Shown here one piece after another: positions 2,998 to 35,207 of a stretch of DNA of 37,827 nt (the first letter of the stretch is position 1; the number at the start of each line of letters is the position of its first letter). Under the pieces are notes generated by a model. It made no database searches, was not told where the DNA came from, and saw only the letters and a list, made by a program, of their open reading frames with translations. The stretch comes from a virus (taxonomy: Duplodnaviria > Heunggongvirae > Uroviricota > Caudoviricetes). The stretch lies in IMG/VR virus record IMGVR_UViG_2534681663_000017, positions 1-37,827 of that record; one strand, written 5' to 3'. Made by a program: the position numbers and the translations under genes.

Positions 2998-3507
2998 ATG
3001 TTTGATTACCAAGTTTCCAAACATCCACATTTTGATGAATCCTGTCGTGCATTCGCATTGCGCCACAACCTGGTGCAACTGGCAGAACGTGCTGGCATGA
3101 ATGTGCAGATTCTGCGGAACAAGTTGAACCCAGCTCAACCTCATTTATTAACCGCACCAGAAATCTGGCTGCTTACCGATCTGACTGAAGATTCAACGCT
3201 GGTAGATGGTTTTCTGGCTCAGATTCACTGCCTGCCATGCGTACCGATTAATGAGGTGGCAAAAGAGAAACTGCCACATTACGTCATGAGTGCAACCGCA
3301 GAGATCGGGCGTGTTGCTGCAGGTGCGGTATCTGGCGATGTAAAAACCAGTGCAGGTCGTCGTGATGCTATCAGCAGCATTAACTCTGTAACACGACTGA
3401 TGGCGTTGGCTGCTGTTTCATTGCAGGCCCGTTTACAGGCTAACCCTGCGATGGCGAGTGCAGTTGATACCGTGACTGGCCTCGGTGCTTCATTTGGTTT
3501 GCTGTGA
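2998..3507 (+). CDS. cII: CII-like lysogeny-establishment regulator (186 CII family)
   Basis: Translation from ATG 2998, [24 protein letters not shown]...[25 protein letters not shown]..., matches 186 CII as recalled (169 aa). Confidence 0.85.
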
Positions 3508-10216: not shown

Positions 10217-11038
10217 ATGAAGGTTAGTTTTGATGTTGTTATTAAAAGTGGTGCTTATGATGTTGATATGGATTACGCGCTTAAAACATTAGCTGGTACA
10301 TCGAATGTAGTTTGCCTTTTGGCAGAAGCGATACTTCGTGGAAGAATTATTGAACGGCGTACCCATGCAAATGATATCAGAGCAAAGCTTAAACACAGTT
10401 TTCCGGGTTCTTATGGTCAAAAATTTGACATCGAGATAAATGACTCGACACTGATTTCTCGTTTGAATTCTATGGGACGTAGTGTTTTCTCTGAAGTAAT
10501 GAGTTACTATATTTGTGAAGCGCTATATGTTGAGCATAATGGTTTGACAGATGCAGCACAGAAAATCATTGATAGTTTAGTTGCAATAGAGGATGAGCTT
10601 ACAAAGCGAATTCGTTCCCCACTAAAAGATATGCATAAAGTCACTACAATGAATGGTTATAATGTTGAGTTATCTTATCGAAAACCTGGATCACCAGAAA
10701 ACATTATAACGTTGACACCAGAAACTGAGATTAATATTTCAGATACTGAAATACTACAGGTTTCCCATGATATATCTGTAATCATAACTCGTTTTAATTC
10801 AATGACAGGAAATGGTCGACTTATACTTGAAGGGTATGAAGAACATGGCACTGTAGCATTTGGATTTTATGATAATTTAAGATATGTAACAGAAAACCAT
10901 AAAAGACAAATCACTCAAAACTTGCATCACAATAATGGCCTTCCATCAGATAGATGGCAATATATGAATTTAACTGTAAGTGATATGGTTCTTCCTAGTG
11001 GGGATGTTATTAAATATCTAATTCGTAATATACCTTGA
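10217..11038 (+). CDS. Hypothetical soluble protein, gene 1 of AT-rich two-gene cargo operon (candidate defence sensor/partner)
   Basis: ORF track starts at GTG 10166; ATG 10217 has GGAGAGG upstream (273 aa). No recognisable catalytic motif; strongly AT-biased codons. Confidence 0.6.
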   Translation: MKVSFDVVIKSGAYDVDMDYALKTLAGTSNVVCLLAEAILRGRIIERRTHANDIRAKLKHSFPGSYGQKFDIEINDSTLISRLNSMGRSVFSEVMSYYICEALYVEHNGLTDAAQKIIDSLVAIEDELTKRIRSPLKDMHKVTTMNGYNVELSYRKPGSPENIITLTPETEINISDTEILQVSHDISVIITRFNSMTGNGRLILEGYEEHGTVAFGFYDNLRYVTENHKRQITQNLHHNNGLPSDRWQYMNLTVSDMVLPSGDVIKYLIRNIP

Positions 11039-12820: not shown

Positions 12821-14583
12821 AAAATCTCCACAATATTGCTGGTATTGGCGGATTCGCCCTGCAGCGGTTCGTTAAACAGTGCGTGCATTGTTGCCCAGGC
12901 CAGATCGGCGTGGCTGGCTTCTTCGCTGCGGCTGGCTTCATAGGTCGGGCGGTTGCCGCTGGCGGTGGTTGCGCGACGGATTGCCATGAATGACTGCGCA
13001 ATGTCGGTGTGTCCGGCGTCAAACTCCAGACGGCGGTGGCTGATAATGTCGTAGGCCTTGAGTACCAGGGCGTTTTTAACGTTGGGATTGTAGACAAACT
13101 CCCTGACGGCAGGAAAAAACGCTTTCACGTTCTCGTAAACCCCGTGACCGACGCCGGTCGAGTCGATGCCGATATAGGTCACGTTATACTGTTCGGTCAG
13201 TTTTTTGATGGCGTCAGCCTGGGCGCGGAAGTCCATCCCGCGCCACTGGTGACGCTCAAGAATGCGGAACTTACCGCCCGGCACGGCTGGCGGTGCCACC
13301 ACCACGCATCCGGCGCTGTCGCCGTTCTGTGTACCTTTTGCCGGGTCATAACCGATCCAAACCTCGCGCCAGCCAAACGGGCGCAGCGCCAGTGCATGAA
13401 AGTCGGTCCAGACTTCCCAACTGTCCACCATGCACGCCTGCAGCTCGCTGAGCGGGAACACGGACGCGAGATCGTCCACGAACTCACACATCAGCAGGTT
13501 CTGGTATTCGTCCGGGCTGTACTCCATGCGCAACTGGTCGAGATCGAACAGGTTACAGCCGCCGCGCACCGCATCTTCCACGGTGACTATCTGGCGGTAT
13601 TGCCCGTCTGCGCACAGCAGGCCGGGGGCCAGATTGTTGTGGGACAGGTCGATGTCCACCTTATCGGCTTTGTTGCGCCCACGATTGAACAGCGCACCGG
13701 ACCAGAACGGATAAGCACTGTGGGTCAGGCTGGATGGCGTGGAAAAATAGGTTTGTCGCCATTTTTTGTGAATAGCCATACCGGAAGCCACTTTGCGCAG
13801 CTCCTGAAATTTCGGTATCCAGAAATATTCATCCAGATACAGGTTGCCGTGATAACTCTGGGCCGTGCGGGCATTGGTGCCGAGGAAGTAAAGCGTGGCA
13901 CCGTTAGGAAGCACCATCGGATCACCTTTCAGCTCCACCTCCACTTCTTTGGCGAAGTCGATGATGTACTGCTTAAAGACGTAGGCCTGTGCCTTGCTGG
14001 CGGAAAGGAAAATCTGGTTACGTCCGGTCAGCAGGGCGTCAATCAGGGCTTCACGGGCAAAATAGAAGGTTGCGCCGATCTGGCGTGACTTCAGCAGGTT
14101 GCGGATGCGGTTGGTTTTTCCGGCTTCCCACCAGTGGCGCTGGTAGTTGAACATGGAGGAATGGAAAATTTCTTCCAGCTTCTCAATCTGTTCATCGGTG
14201 AAAACGTTCTTTTCCGGCTGACGGCGTGGGCCTTTGTTGCGGTTGGCGACGTTAGGGTTTAAGTCGGATTCGTTGCCGCCATTGTTAAACTTGCCGATCC
14301 GCGCGTGGCGTTCCGACTGGCGCGCCAGCAGGTCAATCTCTTTGAAATCTTTCCCTTCTTTGTGCTCCTTCATAATGAGCTGGCAGTAGCGTGCGGCGGT
14401 GGTGAGCTGCATCTGATCCAGCGGCCCATAGTCACCCCACTTGTCGCGTTTTTTCCAGCTGTGAACGGTTGCAACTTTCTCGCCCAGCATTTCAGCAATG
14501 CGGGCTACGCGGTATCCCTGAAAGTACAGCAGCATGGCCTGCCGACGGGGATCGAGATCTGCGGGTGTCAGTGTGGTGTTCAT
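12817..14583 (-). CDS. P: Terminase large (ATPase) subunit, P2 gpP family
   Basis: 588 aa; Walker-A-like SRQIGATFYF region and P2-P-like length; divergent from the O-N-M-L operon. Confidence 0.9.
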   Translation of the reverse strand: MNTTLTPADLDPRRQAMLLYFQGYRVARIAEMLGEKVATVHSWKKRDKWGDYGPLDQMQLTTAARYCQLIMKEHKEGKDFKEIDLLARQSERHARIGKFNNGGNESDLNPNVANRNKGPRRQPEKNVFTDEQIEKLEEIFHSSMFNYQRHWWEAGKTNRIRNLLKSRQIGATFYFAREALIDALLTGRNQIFLSASKAQAYVFKQYIIDFAKEVEVELKGDPMVLPNGATLYFLGTNARTAQSYHGNLYLDEYFWIPKFQELRKVASGMAIHKKWRQTYFSTPSSLTHSAYPFWSGALFNRGRNKADKVDIDLSHNNLAPGLLCADGQYRQIVTVEDAVRGGCNLFDLDQLRMEYSPDEYQNLLMCEFVDDLASVFPLSELQACMVDSWEVWTDFHALALRPFGWREVWIGYDPAKGTQNGDSAGCVVVAPPAVPGGKFRILERHQWRGMDFRAQADAIKKLTEQYNVTYIGIDSTGVGHGVYENVKAFFPAVREFVYNPNVKNALVLKAYDIISHRRLEFDAGHTDIAQSFMAIRRATTASGNRPTYEASRSEEASHADLAWATMHALFNEPLQGESANTSNIVEIF

Positions 14584-14629
14584 GGCACAAACCTACAGCC
14601 TTGAATGAAGGCTTTCCCCGCCTGCGGTT

Positions 14630-14647
14630 TGTGTGGTTGTCGGTACA
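14630..14647. promoter_or_regulatory. TGT-N12-ACA dyad (Ogr/B-type late-activator binding site) in the P/O divergent region
   Basis: TGTGTGGTTGTCGGTACA; centre is 87 bp upstream of the O start codon, the same spacing as the site upstream of FI. Confidence 0.4.
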
Positions 14648-17383: not shown

Positions 17384-17848
17384 ATGAAGTTTGTTGCGCC
17401 AGAACAGGCACCGGAACAGGCGGAAATCATCAGAAATACGCCGTTCTGGCCTGATGTGGACTTGTCGGAGTTTCGCAGTGTCATGCGCACTGACGGCACG
17501 GTGACGCAGCTGCGTTTAAAGCAGGTTGCGCTGTCGGCAATTTCGGAGGTCAACGCAGAGCTGTATGAGTTTCGCAGACGCCAGCAGATGCTGGGATATG
17601 CCTCGCTGGCAGAGGTTCCGGCAGAACATCTGGACGGGAAAAGTGAGCGCATTCAGCACTATTTCAACGCGGTTTACTGCTGGGCCCGCGCCATGCTCAA
17701 CGAACGATACCAGGACTATGACGCCACGGCGTCTGGTGTGAAGCGAGGCGAGGAACTGGCGGAAGCCAGCGGTGATTTATGGCGTGACGCCCGCTGGGCC
17801 ATCAGCCGGGTACAGGACGCGCCGCACTGCACAGTGGAGCTTATCTGA
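17384..17848 (+). CDS. L: Head completion/stabilisation protein, P2 gpL family
   Basis: ATG 17384 with AGGAGA upstream (ORF track begins earlier at 17321); stop overlaps X start. Confidence 0.8.
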   Translation: MKFVAPEQAPEQAEIIRNTPFWPDVDLSEFRSVMRTDGTVTQLRLKQVALSAISEVNAELYEFRRRQQMLGYASLAEVPAEHLDGKSERIQHYFNAVYCWARAMLNERYQDYDATASGVKRGEELAEASGDLWRDARWAISRVQDAPHCTVELI

Positions 17849-19700: not shown

Positions 19701-20094
19701 AGCAGTGCCTTATGTCCATAATAACCCGGACAAACTGCATCTGTTTGTGGATAACGGTTCGCTGGTTGCCACGGGGGCCAGCTCCATGTCATGGGAGTAC
19801 CGTTACACCCTGAACGTGGTGATTGAGGATTTCAGCGGCGACCAGAATCTGCTGATGGCCCCGGTTTTGCTGTGGCTGCGGGATAACCAGCCCGATGCCA
19901 TCAATAACCCGGCGTTACGGGAAAAGGTATTTACCTTTGAGGTGGATATTTTACGCAACGATGTCTGTGATATCAGCCTTAACCTGCAACTGACGGAGCG
20001 TGTGCTGGTCAGCACTGACGGCAGTGTGTCGAGTGTTGAAGCTGTAGCGGAACCCGATGAACCTGAAGAAATGTGGACGGTGAAACGTGGCTGA
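19663..20094 (+). CDS. R: Tail completion protein, P2 gpR family
   Basis: Aligns by eye with P2 R from ...QSLRHALNKAV...; likely GTG start at 19663 (AGGAGCG 5 nt upstream) rather than the TTG at 19642. Confidence 0.75.
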   Translation: MNKPQSLRHALNKAVPYVHNNPDKLHLFVDNGSLVATGASSMSWEYRYTLNVVIEDFSGDQNLLMAPVLLWLRDNQPDAINNPALREKVFTFEVDILRNDVCDISLNLQLTERVLVSTDGSVSSVEAVAEPDEPEEMWTVKRG

Positions 20095-20533
20095 ACTGCA
20101 GAAGGTGGACGACTGGCTGAGTGCTTTGCTGGCGAATCTGGAACCAGCCGCAAGAAGCCGCATGATGCGCCAGCTGGCGCAGGAACTGCGCCGGACACAG
20201 CAGCAGAATATCAGGATGCAGCGCAACCCTGATGGCAGCAGCTATGAACCTCGACGGGTAACAGCACGCAGTAAAAAGGGGTGCATCAAACGTCAGATGT
20301 TTGCAAAGCTGCGCACCACAAAATACCTGAAAACTGCCGCCAACGCCGACTCTGTCAGTGTGCAGTTTGAAGATAAGGTGCAGCGCATTGCCCGCGTTCA
20401 CCATTATGGCCTGCGTGATCGAGTTAGATATAAGGGGCCAGAAATACGTTATACAGAGCGACGTCTATTAGGCTTCTGCACTGAGAGTAACGATGCTATT
20501 AGTATAATTTTACTTCGTTATCTAACTAGTTGA
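20087..20533 (+). CDS. S: Tail completion protein, P2 gpS family (C-terminal about 35 codons AT-rich and probably remodelled by the downstream insertion)
   Basis: GTG start overlapping R stop; N-terminal two-thirds GC-rich and S-like, while the last ~110 nt are AT-rich like the adjacent island. Confidence 0.75.
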   Translation: MAELQKVDDWLSALLANLEPAARSRMMRQLAQELRRTQQQNIRMQRNPDGSSYEPRRVTARSKKGCIKRQMFAKLRTTKYLKTAANADSVSVQFEDKVQRIARVHHYGLRDRVRYKGPEIRYTERRLLGFCTESNDAISIILLRYLTS

Positions 20534-20605
20534 TATGTCTTGTTTTTTGTGGGTTTTTATAACATCATATTGGCTCTGTTATAAATAGTATGGAGAGTTT
20601 GATTG

Positions 20606-21811
20606 ATGAAAAAAAATAACGATATCAATAAACAAGTAAAATCAGAAACAGAAAATAATTCATCTGCAAATATGAATGGAAGTGGCTCGGATGAAATCCT
20701 TTCTAAGAGCACCTCTGGTACGGTGGTATGGGGAGATAACAGTTTTGGAAGTATTTCTAAATATATTAATGAGGTACTCGGTAAGAATTTATATTTAGAT
20801 ATAATTAAATCTCTTGATGCTAAGTTGAAAGCACCAGTTCAAGCTAATAGAACTACTATATTAAAGAACCTGAAGGGTAATTTCAAAGAGGAAAATCTTG
20901 TGCTTGTATTAGGCGCTGGAATTTCTTTGGATTATAAAATACCTACATGGGATGAATTATTAAGGAGGTTGCTTGCTAGAGCGTTACAAGATACTAATGA
21001 AAATCAGCAAGTTGTTGCGACATTATTTAATCAGGTGTTCGGGCCAAATGCTTTGATTGCGGCTAGATATTTAAAGTTACATTTTGAAAGTGCTAACACT
21101 CCTCTTGAGAAAGAAATTCAGAAAGTGTTATATCAATTTTATGATAGCACCGAGAGTCAAACGCTTAAGGCGATAAAGAAATTATGTATTTCTGCGGGGA
21201 AGGCTCCGGGGTTAGATTCTGTCATAACATATAATTATGACGACATACTAGAGCAAACATTACAAAACGCAGATGTTGGTATTAAATTTAAGGTTATATA
21301 TAAAACTGGGCAGCATGCAAAAAAAGATGAGTTGCCAATATATCATGTTCATGGATATCTTCCCTTAAATGGTAAGATTGATAGTGATGACAGCCTAGTT
21401 TTATCGGATGAAAGTTATCATCGGCAATATATGGATTTATATCACTGGAGTAATATGGTTCAGTTGAATAAATTCAAAGACAATAATTGTTTGTTTATAG
21501 GACATTCCTTTACTGATCCAAATTTAAGACGTCTGCTTGATGCTGCTAAAAAGTTAAGGGGTAATGATTCTAAACCTCATTACTTAATAAAATGTCGACA
21601 CTCAAAAGATGATGTTATAAATAAAATTCTAAAAGGTTCACGTCAAGATTTGAATGACGGGCTAGTCGACGATATAGACAATGTTGCCCGTTCTTTATTA
21701 GATACTGTACATAAATTTGAAGAAATTGATGCTAACTCTTTTGGTGTTAATGTTATATGGATTGATAATTTTACTGAAATAGGCCCCATAGTAACTGATT
21801 TAACTCAATAA
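20606..21811 (+). CDS. Standalone SIR2-like (sirtuin-fold, putative NAD+-consuming) protein, candidate anti-phage defence effector
   Basis: 401 aa from ATG 20606 (GGAGAG upstream); motifs LVLVLGAGISLDYKIPTWDELL, YNYDDILEQ and IYHVHGY match the SIR2-like domain pattern seen in defence-associated sirtuins; AT-rich island between S and V. Confidence 0.8.
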   Translation: MKKNNDINKQVKSETENNSSANMNGSGSDEILSKSTSGTVVWGDNSFGSISKYINEVLGKNLYLDIIKSLDAKLKAPVQANRTTILKNLKGNFKEENLVLVLGAGISLDYKIPTWDELLRRLLARALQDTNENQQVVATLFNQVFGPNALIAARYLKLHFESANTPLEKEIQKVLYQFYDSTESQTLKAIKKLCISAGKAPGLDSVITYNYDDILEQTLQNADVGIKFKVIYKTGQHAKKDELPIYHVHGYLPLNGKIDSDDSLVLSDESYHRQYMDLYHWSNMVQLNKFKDNNCLFIGHSFTDPNLRRLLDAAKKLRGNDSKPHYLIKCRHSKDDVINKILKGSRQDLNDGLVDDIDNVARSLLDTVHKFEEIDANSFGVNVIWIDNFTEIGPIVTDLTQ

Positions 21812-21821
21812 ATCTTGTTTT

Positions 21822-21860
21822 AGTTGTGCCGGCAATGGCACAACTGTCTTAAGTTATTTT
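21822..21860 (+). terminator. Perfect 9-bp hairpin plus T-tract after the SIR2-like gene; the same dyad is a TGT-N12-ACA motif (21825..21842)
   Basis: AGTTGTGCC-GGCAAT-GGCACAACT followed by GTCTTAAGTTATTTT; contains TGTGCCGGCAATGGCACA (TGT-N12-ACA). Confidence 0.45.
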
Positions 21861-21889
21861 CCTAATAATATTTTTGTAAGTTGTGTGCC

Positions 21890-22468
21890 ATGAACGCACA
21901 ACTTACAGAAATCATGCGCCTTATCACCAACCTGATCCGCACTGGTGTAGTCACCGAAGTGGACCGGGAAAACTGGCTTTGTCGGGTGAAAACGGGCGAC
22001 CTTGAAACCAACTGGATTAACTGGCTGACGCTGCGCGCGGGTAATGCCCGCACATGGTGGAAACCATCGGAAGGTGAGCAGGTGGTGCTGCTGAGTCTGG
22101 GCGGCAATCTGGAGACCGCCTTTGCGCTGCCCGCTGTCTATTCGAATCAGTTCGCACCACCGTCGACGTCGGCGGACGCCTGCGTGACAGAACATCCTGA
22201 CGGTGGCTGGTTTGAATACGAACCCGCCACCGGGCGCTGGTATGTCAGGGGCATCAAATCAATGGTCATTGAGGCCGCTGACAAAATCACCATGAAAACC
22301 AGTGAGTTTGTACTGGAGGCTGACCGCACGCGCATTAACAGTGAAGTGGTGATCAATGGTGGCGTTACCCAGGGCGGCGGTGCAATGAGTTCTAACGGAA
22401 TTGTGGTTGATGCACATCAGCATACTGGCGTCCTGAAAGGCGGCGACACAACCGGAGGCCCGGTATGA
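21890..22468 (+). CDS. V: Baseplate assembly/spike protein, P2 gpV family
   Basis: N-terminus MNAQLTEIMRLITNLIRTGVVTEVD resembles P2 V as recalled; ORF track starts 9 nt earlier at TTG. Confidence 0.8.
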   Translation: MNAQLTEIMRLITNLIRTGVVTEVDRENWLCRVKTGDLETNWINWLTLRAGNARTWWKPSEGEQVVLLSLGGNLETAFALPAVYSNQFAPPSTSADACVTEHPDGGWFEYEPATGRWYVRGIKSMVIEAADKITMKTSEFVLEADRTRINSEVVINGGVTQGGGAMSSNGIVVDAHQHTGVLKGGDTTGGPV

Positions 22469-27731: not shown

Positions 27732-27749
27732 TGTGTGAATAACGACACA
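27732..27749. promoter_or_regulatory. TGT-N12-ACA dyad (late-activator site) upstream of tail sheath gene
   Basis: TGTGTGAATAACGACACA; centre is 85 bp upstream of the FI ATG. Confidence 0.45.
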
Positions 27750-34753: not shown

Positions 34754-34972
34754 ATGATGATTTGCCCACTGTGTGGAAGTGCCGCCCATACTCGCAGCAG
34801 TTTTCAGGTATCTTCATTGACCAAAGAGCGTTACAACCAGTGCCAGAACATTAACTGCAGCCATACTTTTGTTACCCATGAAACTTTTGTTCGTTCGATT
34901 GCAACGCCAAAAGAGTCAAATCCGGTTCAGCCGCATCCAATGAAATCAGGACAGGTAGCGCTCTCTCTTTGA
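34754..34972 (+). CDS. ogr: Late-gene transcription activator, Ogr/Delta zinc-finger family
   Basis: From ATG 34754: MMICPLCGSAAHTRSS...KERYNQCQNINCSHTF, the CxxC-N22-CxxxxC zinc finger recalled for P2 Ogr; 72 aa; GGGGAGA upstream. Confidence 0.85.
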   Translation: MMICPLCGSAAHTRSSFQVSSLTKERYNQCQNINCSHTFVTHETFVRSIATPKESNPVQPHPMKSGQVALSL

Positions 34973-35207
34973 CGCTGCCGCCATTTTGTCGCCATCGTTA
35001 AAAAACAGTGCTTCTAACATCATGATCTTAAACACCATAAATTTCAGGCAACAAAAAACCCATCAACCTTGAACCGAAATGGCGGGGGTGATGGGCTCCA
35101 CAAAATGGGGACATCAAAGAAAAGCAGTGGCACTAATTAAGACTGATGCCCTGCGGAAAAGTTCTGCGGTTGTGCAAAAAAATTTCATTTTCAGGGCAAC
35201 TTCAGTT

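Follow-up and report, generated by a model that had tools for sequence, protein, structure and literature searches.

The 37,827-nt stretch of DNA analyzed here (positions 1 to 37,827 of IMG/VR virus record IMGVR_UViG_2534681663_000017, hereafter the window) is a P2-like (Peduoviridae) prophage in which a SIR2-like cargo gene has been inserted between genes S and V, and a short inverted repeat, or dyad, lies between the end of this cargo gene and the V start codon. Our analysis makes it highly probable that the dyad is the Ogr-type activator site of the late promoter pV, which drives the V-W-J-I-H-G operon, and that the V mRNA is leaderless. An initial annotation of the window had regarded the dyad as a terminator of the SIR2-like gene that also contains an activator-like motif, and had offered two possibilities: that the insertion had replaced the native V promoter, leaving V dependent on read-through or on an unseen promoter, or that a compact late promoter overlaps the cargo terminator. 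The results described below remove an apparent anomaly: the tail operon has not lost its promoter to the SIR2 insertion.

The dyad is a perfect 9-bp inverted repeat on the plus strand, AGTTGTGCC-ggcaat-GGCACAACT, with arms at 21822-21830 and 21837-21845 separated by a 6-nt spacer, and it starts 10 nt beyond the stop codon of the SIR2-like gene (21809-21811), where the initial annotation had correctly placed a perfect hairpin. It also contains, as had been noted, a match to the late-promoter consensus TGT-N12-ACA (quoted in PMC3931495). This match, TGTGCCGGCAATGGCACA (21825-21842, plus strand; centre at 21833.5), is the predicted Ogr-type activator site of pV, and 56.5 bp separate its centre from the A of the V ATG (position 21890, not 21891). 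The divergent promoters pO and pP share one motif (14630-14647), whose centre at 14638.5 lies 87.5 bp away from the ATG of O (14726) and 55.5 bp away from that of P (14583, minus strand). The pF motif (27732-27749, plus strand) is 85.5 bp ahead of the FI ATG (27826). These measurements bear out the earlier estimates of about 56 bp at V and about 86 bp at O and FI. The three promoter-associated motifs of the window occupy the places of pO/pP, pV and pF in P2. The bare TGT-N12-ACA motif is not more frequent in the window than expected by chance (9 occurrences seen, 9.6 expected), and its significance therefore had to rest on placement and conservation. Its placement relative to the V ATG is far beyond chance.

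We used two comparison sets, one of 80 IMG/VR viral loci (25 distinct upstream sequences) and one of 53 genomes drawn from different species of Enterobacterales, with V identities of 48-98%. An exact TGT-N12-ACA was present 54.5-57.5 bp before the V ATG at all 80 IMG/VR loci and at 45 of the 53 species-level loci, 35 of which have it at exactly 55.5 bp. The distance is kept alike in empty sites, in sites with minus-strand cargo and in sites with plus-strand cargo, while the sequence from dyad to ATG is otherwise unrelated among cassettes. In empty-site relatives, where S lies directly upstream of V, the S-V spacer is 68 bp long and carries TGTATCAGCACTGATACA 55.5 bp ahead of the V ATG, which is the comparison with insertion-free prophages that the initial annotation had called for. 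Cargo at the S-V hotspot is mostly on the minus strand, like orf30 of P2, and a dyad cannot terminate a cargo gene encoded on the opposite strand. The proposal that the dyad is a terminator and nothing else, with V orphaned, does not accommodate the same motif at the same distance in cargo-free relatives and in relatives with opposite-strand cargo.

The spacing of 56 bp at V, as opposed to about 86 bp at O and FI, is explained by the geometry of the P2 promoters. In the P2 annotation (NC_001895), the activator site of pV spans 10239-10266 and transcription starts at 10308, the first base of the V coding sequence, giving 55.5 bp from site centre to start and no leader. A single activator site, centred at 3072, is annotated for pO (start 3127, 40-nt leader) and pP (start 3016, 23-nt leader), and that of pF is centred at 17569 (start 17626-17628, leader of ~25 nt); at these three promoters, the distance from centre to start is 55-59 bp. 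Transcription of the V operon of P2 thus leaves no leader on the mRNA, and the few known leaderless genes of E. coli include ones from phages lambda and P2 (PMC4633059, which cites Christie & Calendar 1985 among its sources). The 56-bp spacing is thus the canonical pV geometry and was not caused by the insertion: the spacing at V is short because the V mRNA has no leader, and the 30-bp gap relative to O and FI corresponds to the ~30-32-nt 5' leaders of those two genes, which contain Shine-Dalgarno sites (ACGGAG ahead of O, GGAGG ahead of FI). The promoter does overlap the hairpin at the 3' end of the cargo gene, as had been suggested, but the word "compact" misread what is a standard distance.

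By analogy with P2, the V mRNA of the window is predicted to be leaderless. Its ATG is preceded by gtaagttgtgtgcc, which contains no Shine-Dalgarno sequence. A -10-like element, TG plus the hexamer TAAGTT, is located at 21875-21882 on the plus strand (hexamer at 21877-21882), with the hexamer ending 7 nt ahead of the ATG. The corresponding -35 position (~21854-21859) reads TTATTT, a poor match of the kind expected at an activator-dependent promoter, and a scan with the sigma-70 consensus found no full promoter at the pV core. The architecture is shared with the relatives. In a matrix anchored on the V ATG and built from 61 distinct variants (43 after collapsing similar ones), A occurs at -11 in 86%, T at -7 in 84% and G at -14 in 60-67%, and a Shine-Dalgarno-like 4-mer precedes V in only 2 of the 43 collapsed variants; such a pattern points to a -10 element from which transcription starts (+1) at the ATG. 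When the 61 pV variants (loci L001-L145) were instead anchored on the dyad, the matrix gave a symmetric TTGTRYCA-N4-TGRYACAA, longer than the TGT-N12-ACA shorthand. The window sequence, TTGTGCCg...TGGCACAA, is a near-perfect match to these symmetric half-sites.

The testable features of a P2-type late promoter are found in the window: the motif, its position relative to the V ATG, the -10 element, the operon context and a cognate activator. The latter is encoded at 34754-34972 on the plus strand by an Ogr/Delta-family zinc-finger gene (CX2CX22CX4C motif; Pfam Ogr_Delta, 5e-22). We propose that this activator would bind the TGT-N12-ACA centred ~56 bp upstream of the start and bring RNA polymerase to a promoter whose -35 is poor and whose -10 reads TAAGTT, and that transcription would begin at the A of the V ATG or 1 nt before it to yield a leaderless V mRNA. 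Two points weigh against this reading. First, the start point and the dependence on Ogr are carried over from P2. Second, compared with the modal variant, the window has both its hexamer and its dyad displaced upstream by 1 bp, so the geometry predicts a start at 21889 or 21890 (plus strand), and a V leader of 1 nt is possible.

Loci L099 and L114 (~2420-2500) differ from the others: their TGT-N12-ACA is 68.5 bp before V and is accompanied by a Shine-Dalgarno sequence (AAGAGG or AGAAGG). Both look like pV variants with a leader, exceptions that fit the rule.

In cassettes that carry SIR2, the activator site may have been lengthened into a long perfect palindrome that doubles as an RNA stem-loop. 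Positioned where the constitutively expressed SIR2 mRNA has its 3' end, such a stem-loop would act as a weak terminator, as a stabiliser of the 3' end, or as both. The RNA of the dyad folds into an 11-bp stem (9 Watson-Crick and 2 G·U pairs) with a 4-nt loop at -16.2 kcal/mol, and RNA from 21812-21862 folds at -18.6 kcal/mol (z = -5.25). The two most stable of the 61 pV dyads are that of the window and that of a 72%-identical SIR2 cassette (-16.9 kcal/mol), the next best reaching -11.6 kcal/mol; medians are -2.7 kcal/mol for minus-strand cargo and -7.9 kcal/mol for empty sites. We gathered six distinct SIR2-cassette variants (the window, L151, L004, L152, L156 and L158). All six extend the stem by at least three pairs beyond TGT/ACA, compared with 3 of 37 minus-cargo variants and 1 of 16 empty sites, and their outer stem pairs differ in sequence (AG/CT, GCAA/TTGC, GAAG/CTTC). 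When the six were aligned, positions of the first helix were 88.9% paired, with three pairs changed on both sides and two G·U changes, while slid controls on the same alignment were 32-39% paired over the whole structure. The G·U changes keep the stem in sense-strand RNA but break the DNA palindrome, and thus support a function at the RNA level. In addition, a hairpin of -16 kcal/mol or better occurs between the cargo stop and V codon 8 in 4 of 4 plus-strand cargo cassettes of the sample but in only 1 of 53 empty-site and minus-cargo variants.

Alternatively, the dyad could be a promoter element and nothing more, its symmetry reflecting a strong, near-consensus binding site for the activator with no RNA function. 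We consider this a serious contender, although its chances fall somewhat short of even. The symmetric family matrix, which the window matches almost perfectly, is what this explanation predicts, and the inner palindrome may reflect just such a near-consensus protein site. Several further observations count against an RNA function. No U-tract adjoins the stem: the tail is GTCTTAAGTTATTTTCC, which has at most 4 T per 8-nt window starting 0-2 nt after the stem, and the T-run begins 9 nt past it. A permissive terminator scan that called 58 sites in the window did not call the dyad, and the T-rich stretch is not conserved among SIR2 cassettes. The dyad hairpins of two plus-strand cargo cassettes, the TIR cassette (L006) and L116, are weak (-0.8 and -2.9 kcal/mol), and one SIR2 homologue (L153, positioned before gene I) lacks any 3' hairpin. 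Finally, the six SIR2 cassettes are homologous and represent one lineage. If the symmetry served protein binding only, however, the non-consensus stem pairs (alignment columns 13-16 with 37-40) would have no reason to be kept, yet they are kept in 6 of 6 SIR2 cassettes with differing sequences; nor would one expect the two substitutions of G·U type, which preserve RNA pairing and not DNA symmetry, or the outward extension of the stem, present in all six SIR2 cassettes but in few other variants. Across cargo classes, dyad stability differed between empty sites and minus-strand cargo (p = 2e-5) but not between plus- and minus-strand cargo (p = 0.39), the latter because the TIR and L116 dyads are weak; the sequences in these tests are not phylogenetically independent, and automatic assignment of cargo class mislabelled at least two loci (L097 and L133).

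On balance, we put the odds of the stem-loop functioning at the 3' end of SIR2 mRNA at about even. Comparison of the cassettes provides good evidence for a hairpin kept by selection as RNA; as a terminator, it is only a candidate. The T-tract reported with the hairpin in the initial annotation is not borne out, given the distance of the T-run from the stem, the failure of the scan to call the site and a T-tract score of 2.06, which is intermediate when set against the 4.0-4.2 obtained for the clear P2 terminators tQ and tV (the score was calibrated on annotated P2 terminators). Like intrinsic terminators, the dyad forms a stem-loop containing G+C just past a stop codon, and at -16.2 kcal/mol its stability is similar to that of tQ (-14.4 kcal/mol) and tV (-12.6 kcal/mol); unlike them, it has no U-run at the stem and fails the scan criterion. 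It resembles the U-less hairpin that is annotated as a "putative" terminator of the O operon in P2. If the stem-loop is functional, a weak terminator or a 3' stabiliser is more likely than an efficient intrinsic terminator. No Rfam family matched at the site, where the lone sub-threshold match, to mir-19 (E = 0.14), is meaningless.

That the dyad is a terminator only, the insertion having destroyed the native pV and left V to read-through or to an unseen promoter, is very improbable. A stable stem-loop 10 nt past the stop codon of a co-oriented gene is what such a terminator would look like, and the native S-V spacer sequence is indeed gone. However, the TGT-N12-ACA sits at the exact distance conserved in empty sites and in sites with opposite-strand cargo, a -10-like hexamer is well placed ahead of a start codon that has no Shine-Dalgarno sequence, and the dyad fails the terminator pattern. 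Translation from read-through RNA would be poor, since the AUG would be internal and without a Shine-Dalgarno sequence, and in that RNA the V start lies within a hairpin of -21.9 kcal/mol.

This second hairpin spans the V start at 21870-21912 (plus strand) and has perfect arms TGTAAGTTGTG (21875-21885) and CACAACTTACA (21897-21907), in which the AGTTGTG of a dyad arm is seen again. Its RNA is predicted to form a stem of 18 bp whose 7-nt loop holds the AUG (-21.9 kcal/mol; z = -5.68 for the read-through RNA). The left arm overlaps the -10 region, and the hairpin can therefore form only in transcripts begun upstream of pV; RNA 21890-21944, corresponding to the leaderless form, is unstructured (-3.9 kcal/mol, z = -0.26). 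Similar pairings between upstream sequence and the first V codons are found in L152, in L158 and in the unrelated plus-strand cassette L116, with compensatory changes at synonymous V codons (TGT/ACA versus GGT/ACC in L152; AAG/CTT versus GAG/CTC in L116) that suggest selection. Because the MAFFT alignment shifted L152 by one column and undercounted covariation in this helix, we relied on individual folds and duplex energies. With kinship uncorrected, median energies of the upstream-to-V duplex were -14.3 kcal/mol for plus-strand and -5.5 kcal/mol for minus-strand cargo (p = 0.005), and the predicted pairing of V nucleotides 1-18 in read-through RNA was 0.64 and 0.41, respectively (p = 0.003).

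These comparisons suggest that co-oriented cassettes may keep read-through transcripts from expressing V. Cargo in the same orientation as V poses the question of what stops constitutive transcription of a defence gene from driving the late tail genes, and the two hairpins, one at the activator site and one at the V start, offer a testable answer. As a tentative extension of the promoter reading, and one we think more likely wrong than right, plus-strand cargo would carry purpose-built RNA structures that insulate the leaderless tail operon from constitutive cargo transcription in the lysogen: the hairpin of the Ogr site at the 3' end of the cargo mRNA, and the second hairpin, in which the pV core DNA pairs with the first V codons. 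Only initiation at pV would yield an RNA with the V AUG unpaired at its 5' end. Read-through RNA would carry the AUG at an internal position, without a Shine-Dalgarno sequence and locked in a stem-loop, and the untranslated V would expose the operon to Rho-dependent polarity. One family with minus-strand cargo (L005, L025 and L059) pairs similarly.

The relatives also delimit the exchanged module. Identity to other cassettes decays within the last ~35-40 codons of S and resumes at the V ATG, and G+C content drops from ~55% in the flanks to ~30% across ~20450-21900, with ~30-35% in the cargo gene. It follows that the S 3' end, the cargo and pV are swapped as one: the exchanged unit, as delimited by these sequence comparisons, is the S 3' end, the cargo and pV together, up to the first V codons (~20420-21907), and each cargo appears to travel with its own S C-terminus and its own pV (loci L001, L004, L005 and L006). 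The claim that the insertion replaced the native pV therefore stands as far as the ancestral sequence is concerned, since the native S-V spacer sequence is absent from the window, but the cassette brought a functional equivalent of the promoter that it replaced. Cargo seen at the S-V site includes SIR2, TIR and several unknown proteins. Because cassettes are swapped with their own late promoter and a diverged S 3' end, the spacing between TGT-N12-ACA and the ATG can be used in annotation, and a TGT-N12-ACA ~55.5 bp before an ATG that lacks a Shine-Dalgarno sequence reliably marks V starts and the boundaries of cassettes in prophages of the Peduoviridae. In L153 (2240-2310), a 79%-identical SIR2 homologue directly precedes tail gene I; a Shine-Dalgarno sequence is present there, and dyad and hairpin are both missing, so the same cargo can sit at a second place inside the tail operon.

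The hairpin could instead be an attC-like site at which cargo is inserted or exchanged. Counting arms of 9 bp or more and loops of 3-20 nt, the window contains five perfect inverted repeats, compared with 2.4 expected, and three of these five are in non-coding DNA of the SIR2 cassette; the recurrence of the arm AGTTGTG in the second hairpin would also fit. We rejected this very unlikely possibility: the cassette junctions are inside S and at the V ATG and not at the dyad, the sequence from dyad to ATG varies between cassettes as well, the gradual decay of identity in S fits homologous exchange via flanking genes, and the cassette encodes no recombinase.

The core finding is mostly known biology in a new cassette. 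Like P2 pV, the window promoter heads the V-W-J-I-H-G operon, has a partial-dyad activator site centred ~55-57 bp before the predicted start, is predicted to start at the V ATG without a Shine-Dalgarno sequence, combines a poor -35 with a -10-like hexamer located 6-7 nt ahead of the ATG, and adjoins non-essential cargo placed between S and V (in P2, orf30). The two promoters share no sequence similarity beyond the motif. The P2 site is imperfect, with TGT and ACA 11 or 14 nt apart and a folding energy of -1.0 kcal/mol, whereas the dyad of the window is a perfect 9-bp palindrome; and orf30 is on the opposite strand, whereas the cargo of the window is co-oriented with V and its stop codon abuts the site. 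The pO, pP and pF promoters of P2 likewise have a TGT-N12-ACA at about -55 and are activated by zinc-finger proteins of the Ogr/Delta/B family; promoters of this type need both their activator and the alpha subunit of RNA polymerase. The same motif at about -55 and zinc-finger activation characterize Psid and PLL of P4 and the B-dependent promoters of phage 186. Leaders at P2 pO, pP and pF are 23-40 nt long with Shine-Dalgarno sites, and those at pO and pF of the window are ~30-32 nt, while the window pP is apparently leaderless like pV. With its predicted 5'-terminal AUG, absence of a Shine-Dalgarno sequence and a -10 at -12 to -7, the V transcript resembles the leaderless phage mRNAs of lambda cI (from PRM) and P2 V. 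Unlike these, it is made from a promoter directly behind a constitutively expressed co-oriented gene, and a leadered form of V is therefore expected as well, predicted to be locked in the second hairpin.

The S-V site resembles the defence hotspots described for P2-like phages, in which variable anti-phage cargo (here SIR2, TIR and unknown proteins) occupies a fixed place between core genes (Rousset et al. 2022, PMC9122126; PMC13586616). We found no account of S-V late-promoter architecture or of a cassette-borne pV in the hotspot and gene descriptions of PMC9122126 or in the promoter mentions found in PMC13586616, which concern cloning and the P4 sid operon. What the present analysis adds is evidence for the elaboration of the activator site into a conserved RNA stem in SIR2 cassettes, where we infer an RNA-level role, and the hairpin that spans the start codon.

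Local gene order in the window is S, cargo, V, W, J, with S, the SIR2-like gene and V all on the plus strand, and the nearest relatives are Escherichia phages 500465-1 and Cartapus and Klebsiella phage 4LV2017. Gene S (20087-20533; Pfam Phage_tail_S, 4e-38) has its last ~35-40 codons, from ~20420, in the swapped AT-rich module. The cargo gene (20606-21811) encodes a SIR2-like protein of 401 aa (Pfam SIR2_2, 1.4e-21) that matches SIR2 models of the LmuA/ThsA type in PADLOC and has a counterpart in E. coli PS10-3 annotated as "SIR2 family protein". Gene V (21890-22468; Pfam Phage_base_V, 1.1e-17), the first gene of the late operon, encodes the baseplate spike; its start is the same in relatives, where it is annotated as baseplate assembly protein V.

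The terminase gene P (region 14581-14647, minus strand) seems to be leaderless too. The centre of the pO/pP dyad is 55.5 bp from its ATG, no Shine-Dalgarno sequence precedes it, and its core, TAGGTT-tgtgcc-ATGAAC, is closely like the pV core, TAAGTT-gtgtgcc-ATGAAC. The start at 14583 is annotated identically in phage Cartapus, whereas P of P2 itself has the 23-nt leader. A fourth TGT-N12-ACA, at 14572-14589, was considered as the pP site and rejected: it overlaps the P start codon and is probably fortuitous and no promoter site, the true shared pO/pP site being that at 14630-14647.

A few other features were observed in and around the cassette. The gap that separates S from the SIR2-like gene contains a perfect inverted repeat of 9 bp, TTTATAACA-N12-TGTTATAAA (20556-20585), which may be an operator or a leader structure of the cargo gene, and a promoter-like CTGAGA-16-TATAAT is located at 20481-20508, within the module-specific 3' end of S. 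E. coli EC05 (NZ_CM169495.1) contains a 99.8%-identical copy of the cassette; the match covers query positions 1-2425 only, in two pieces, and an IS5-like (ISKpn26) transposase is annotated beneath it. Just past the ogr end of the prophage, the gene for the small RNA RybB (35050-35128, minus strand; Rfam, 100 bits) marks the chromosomal flank.

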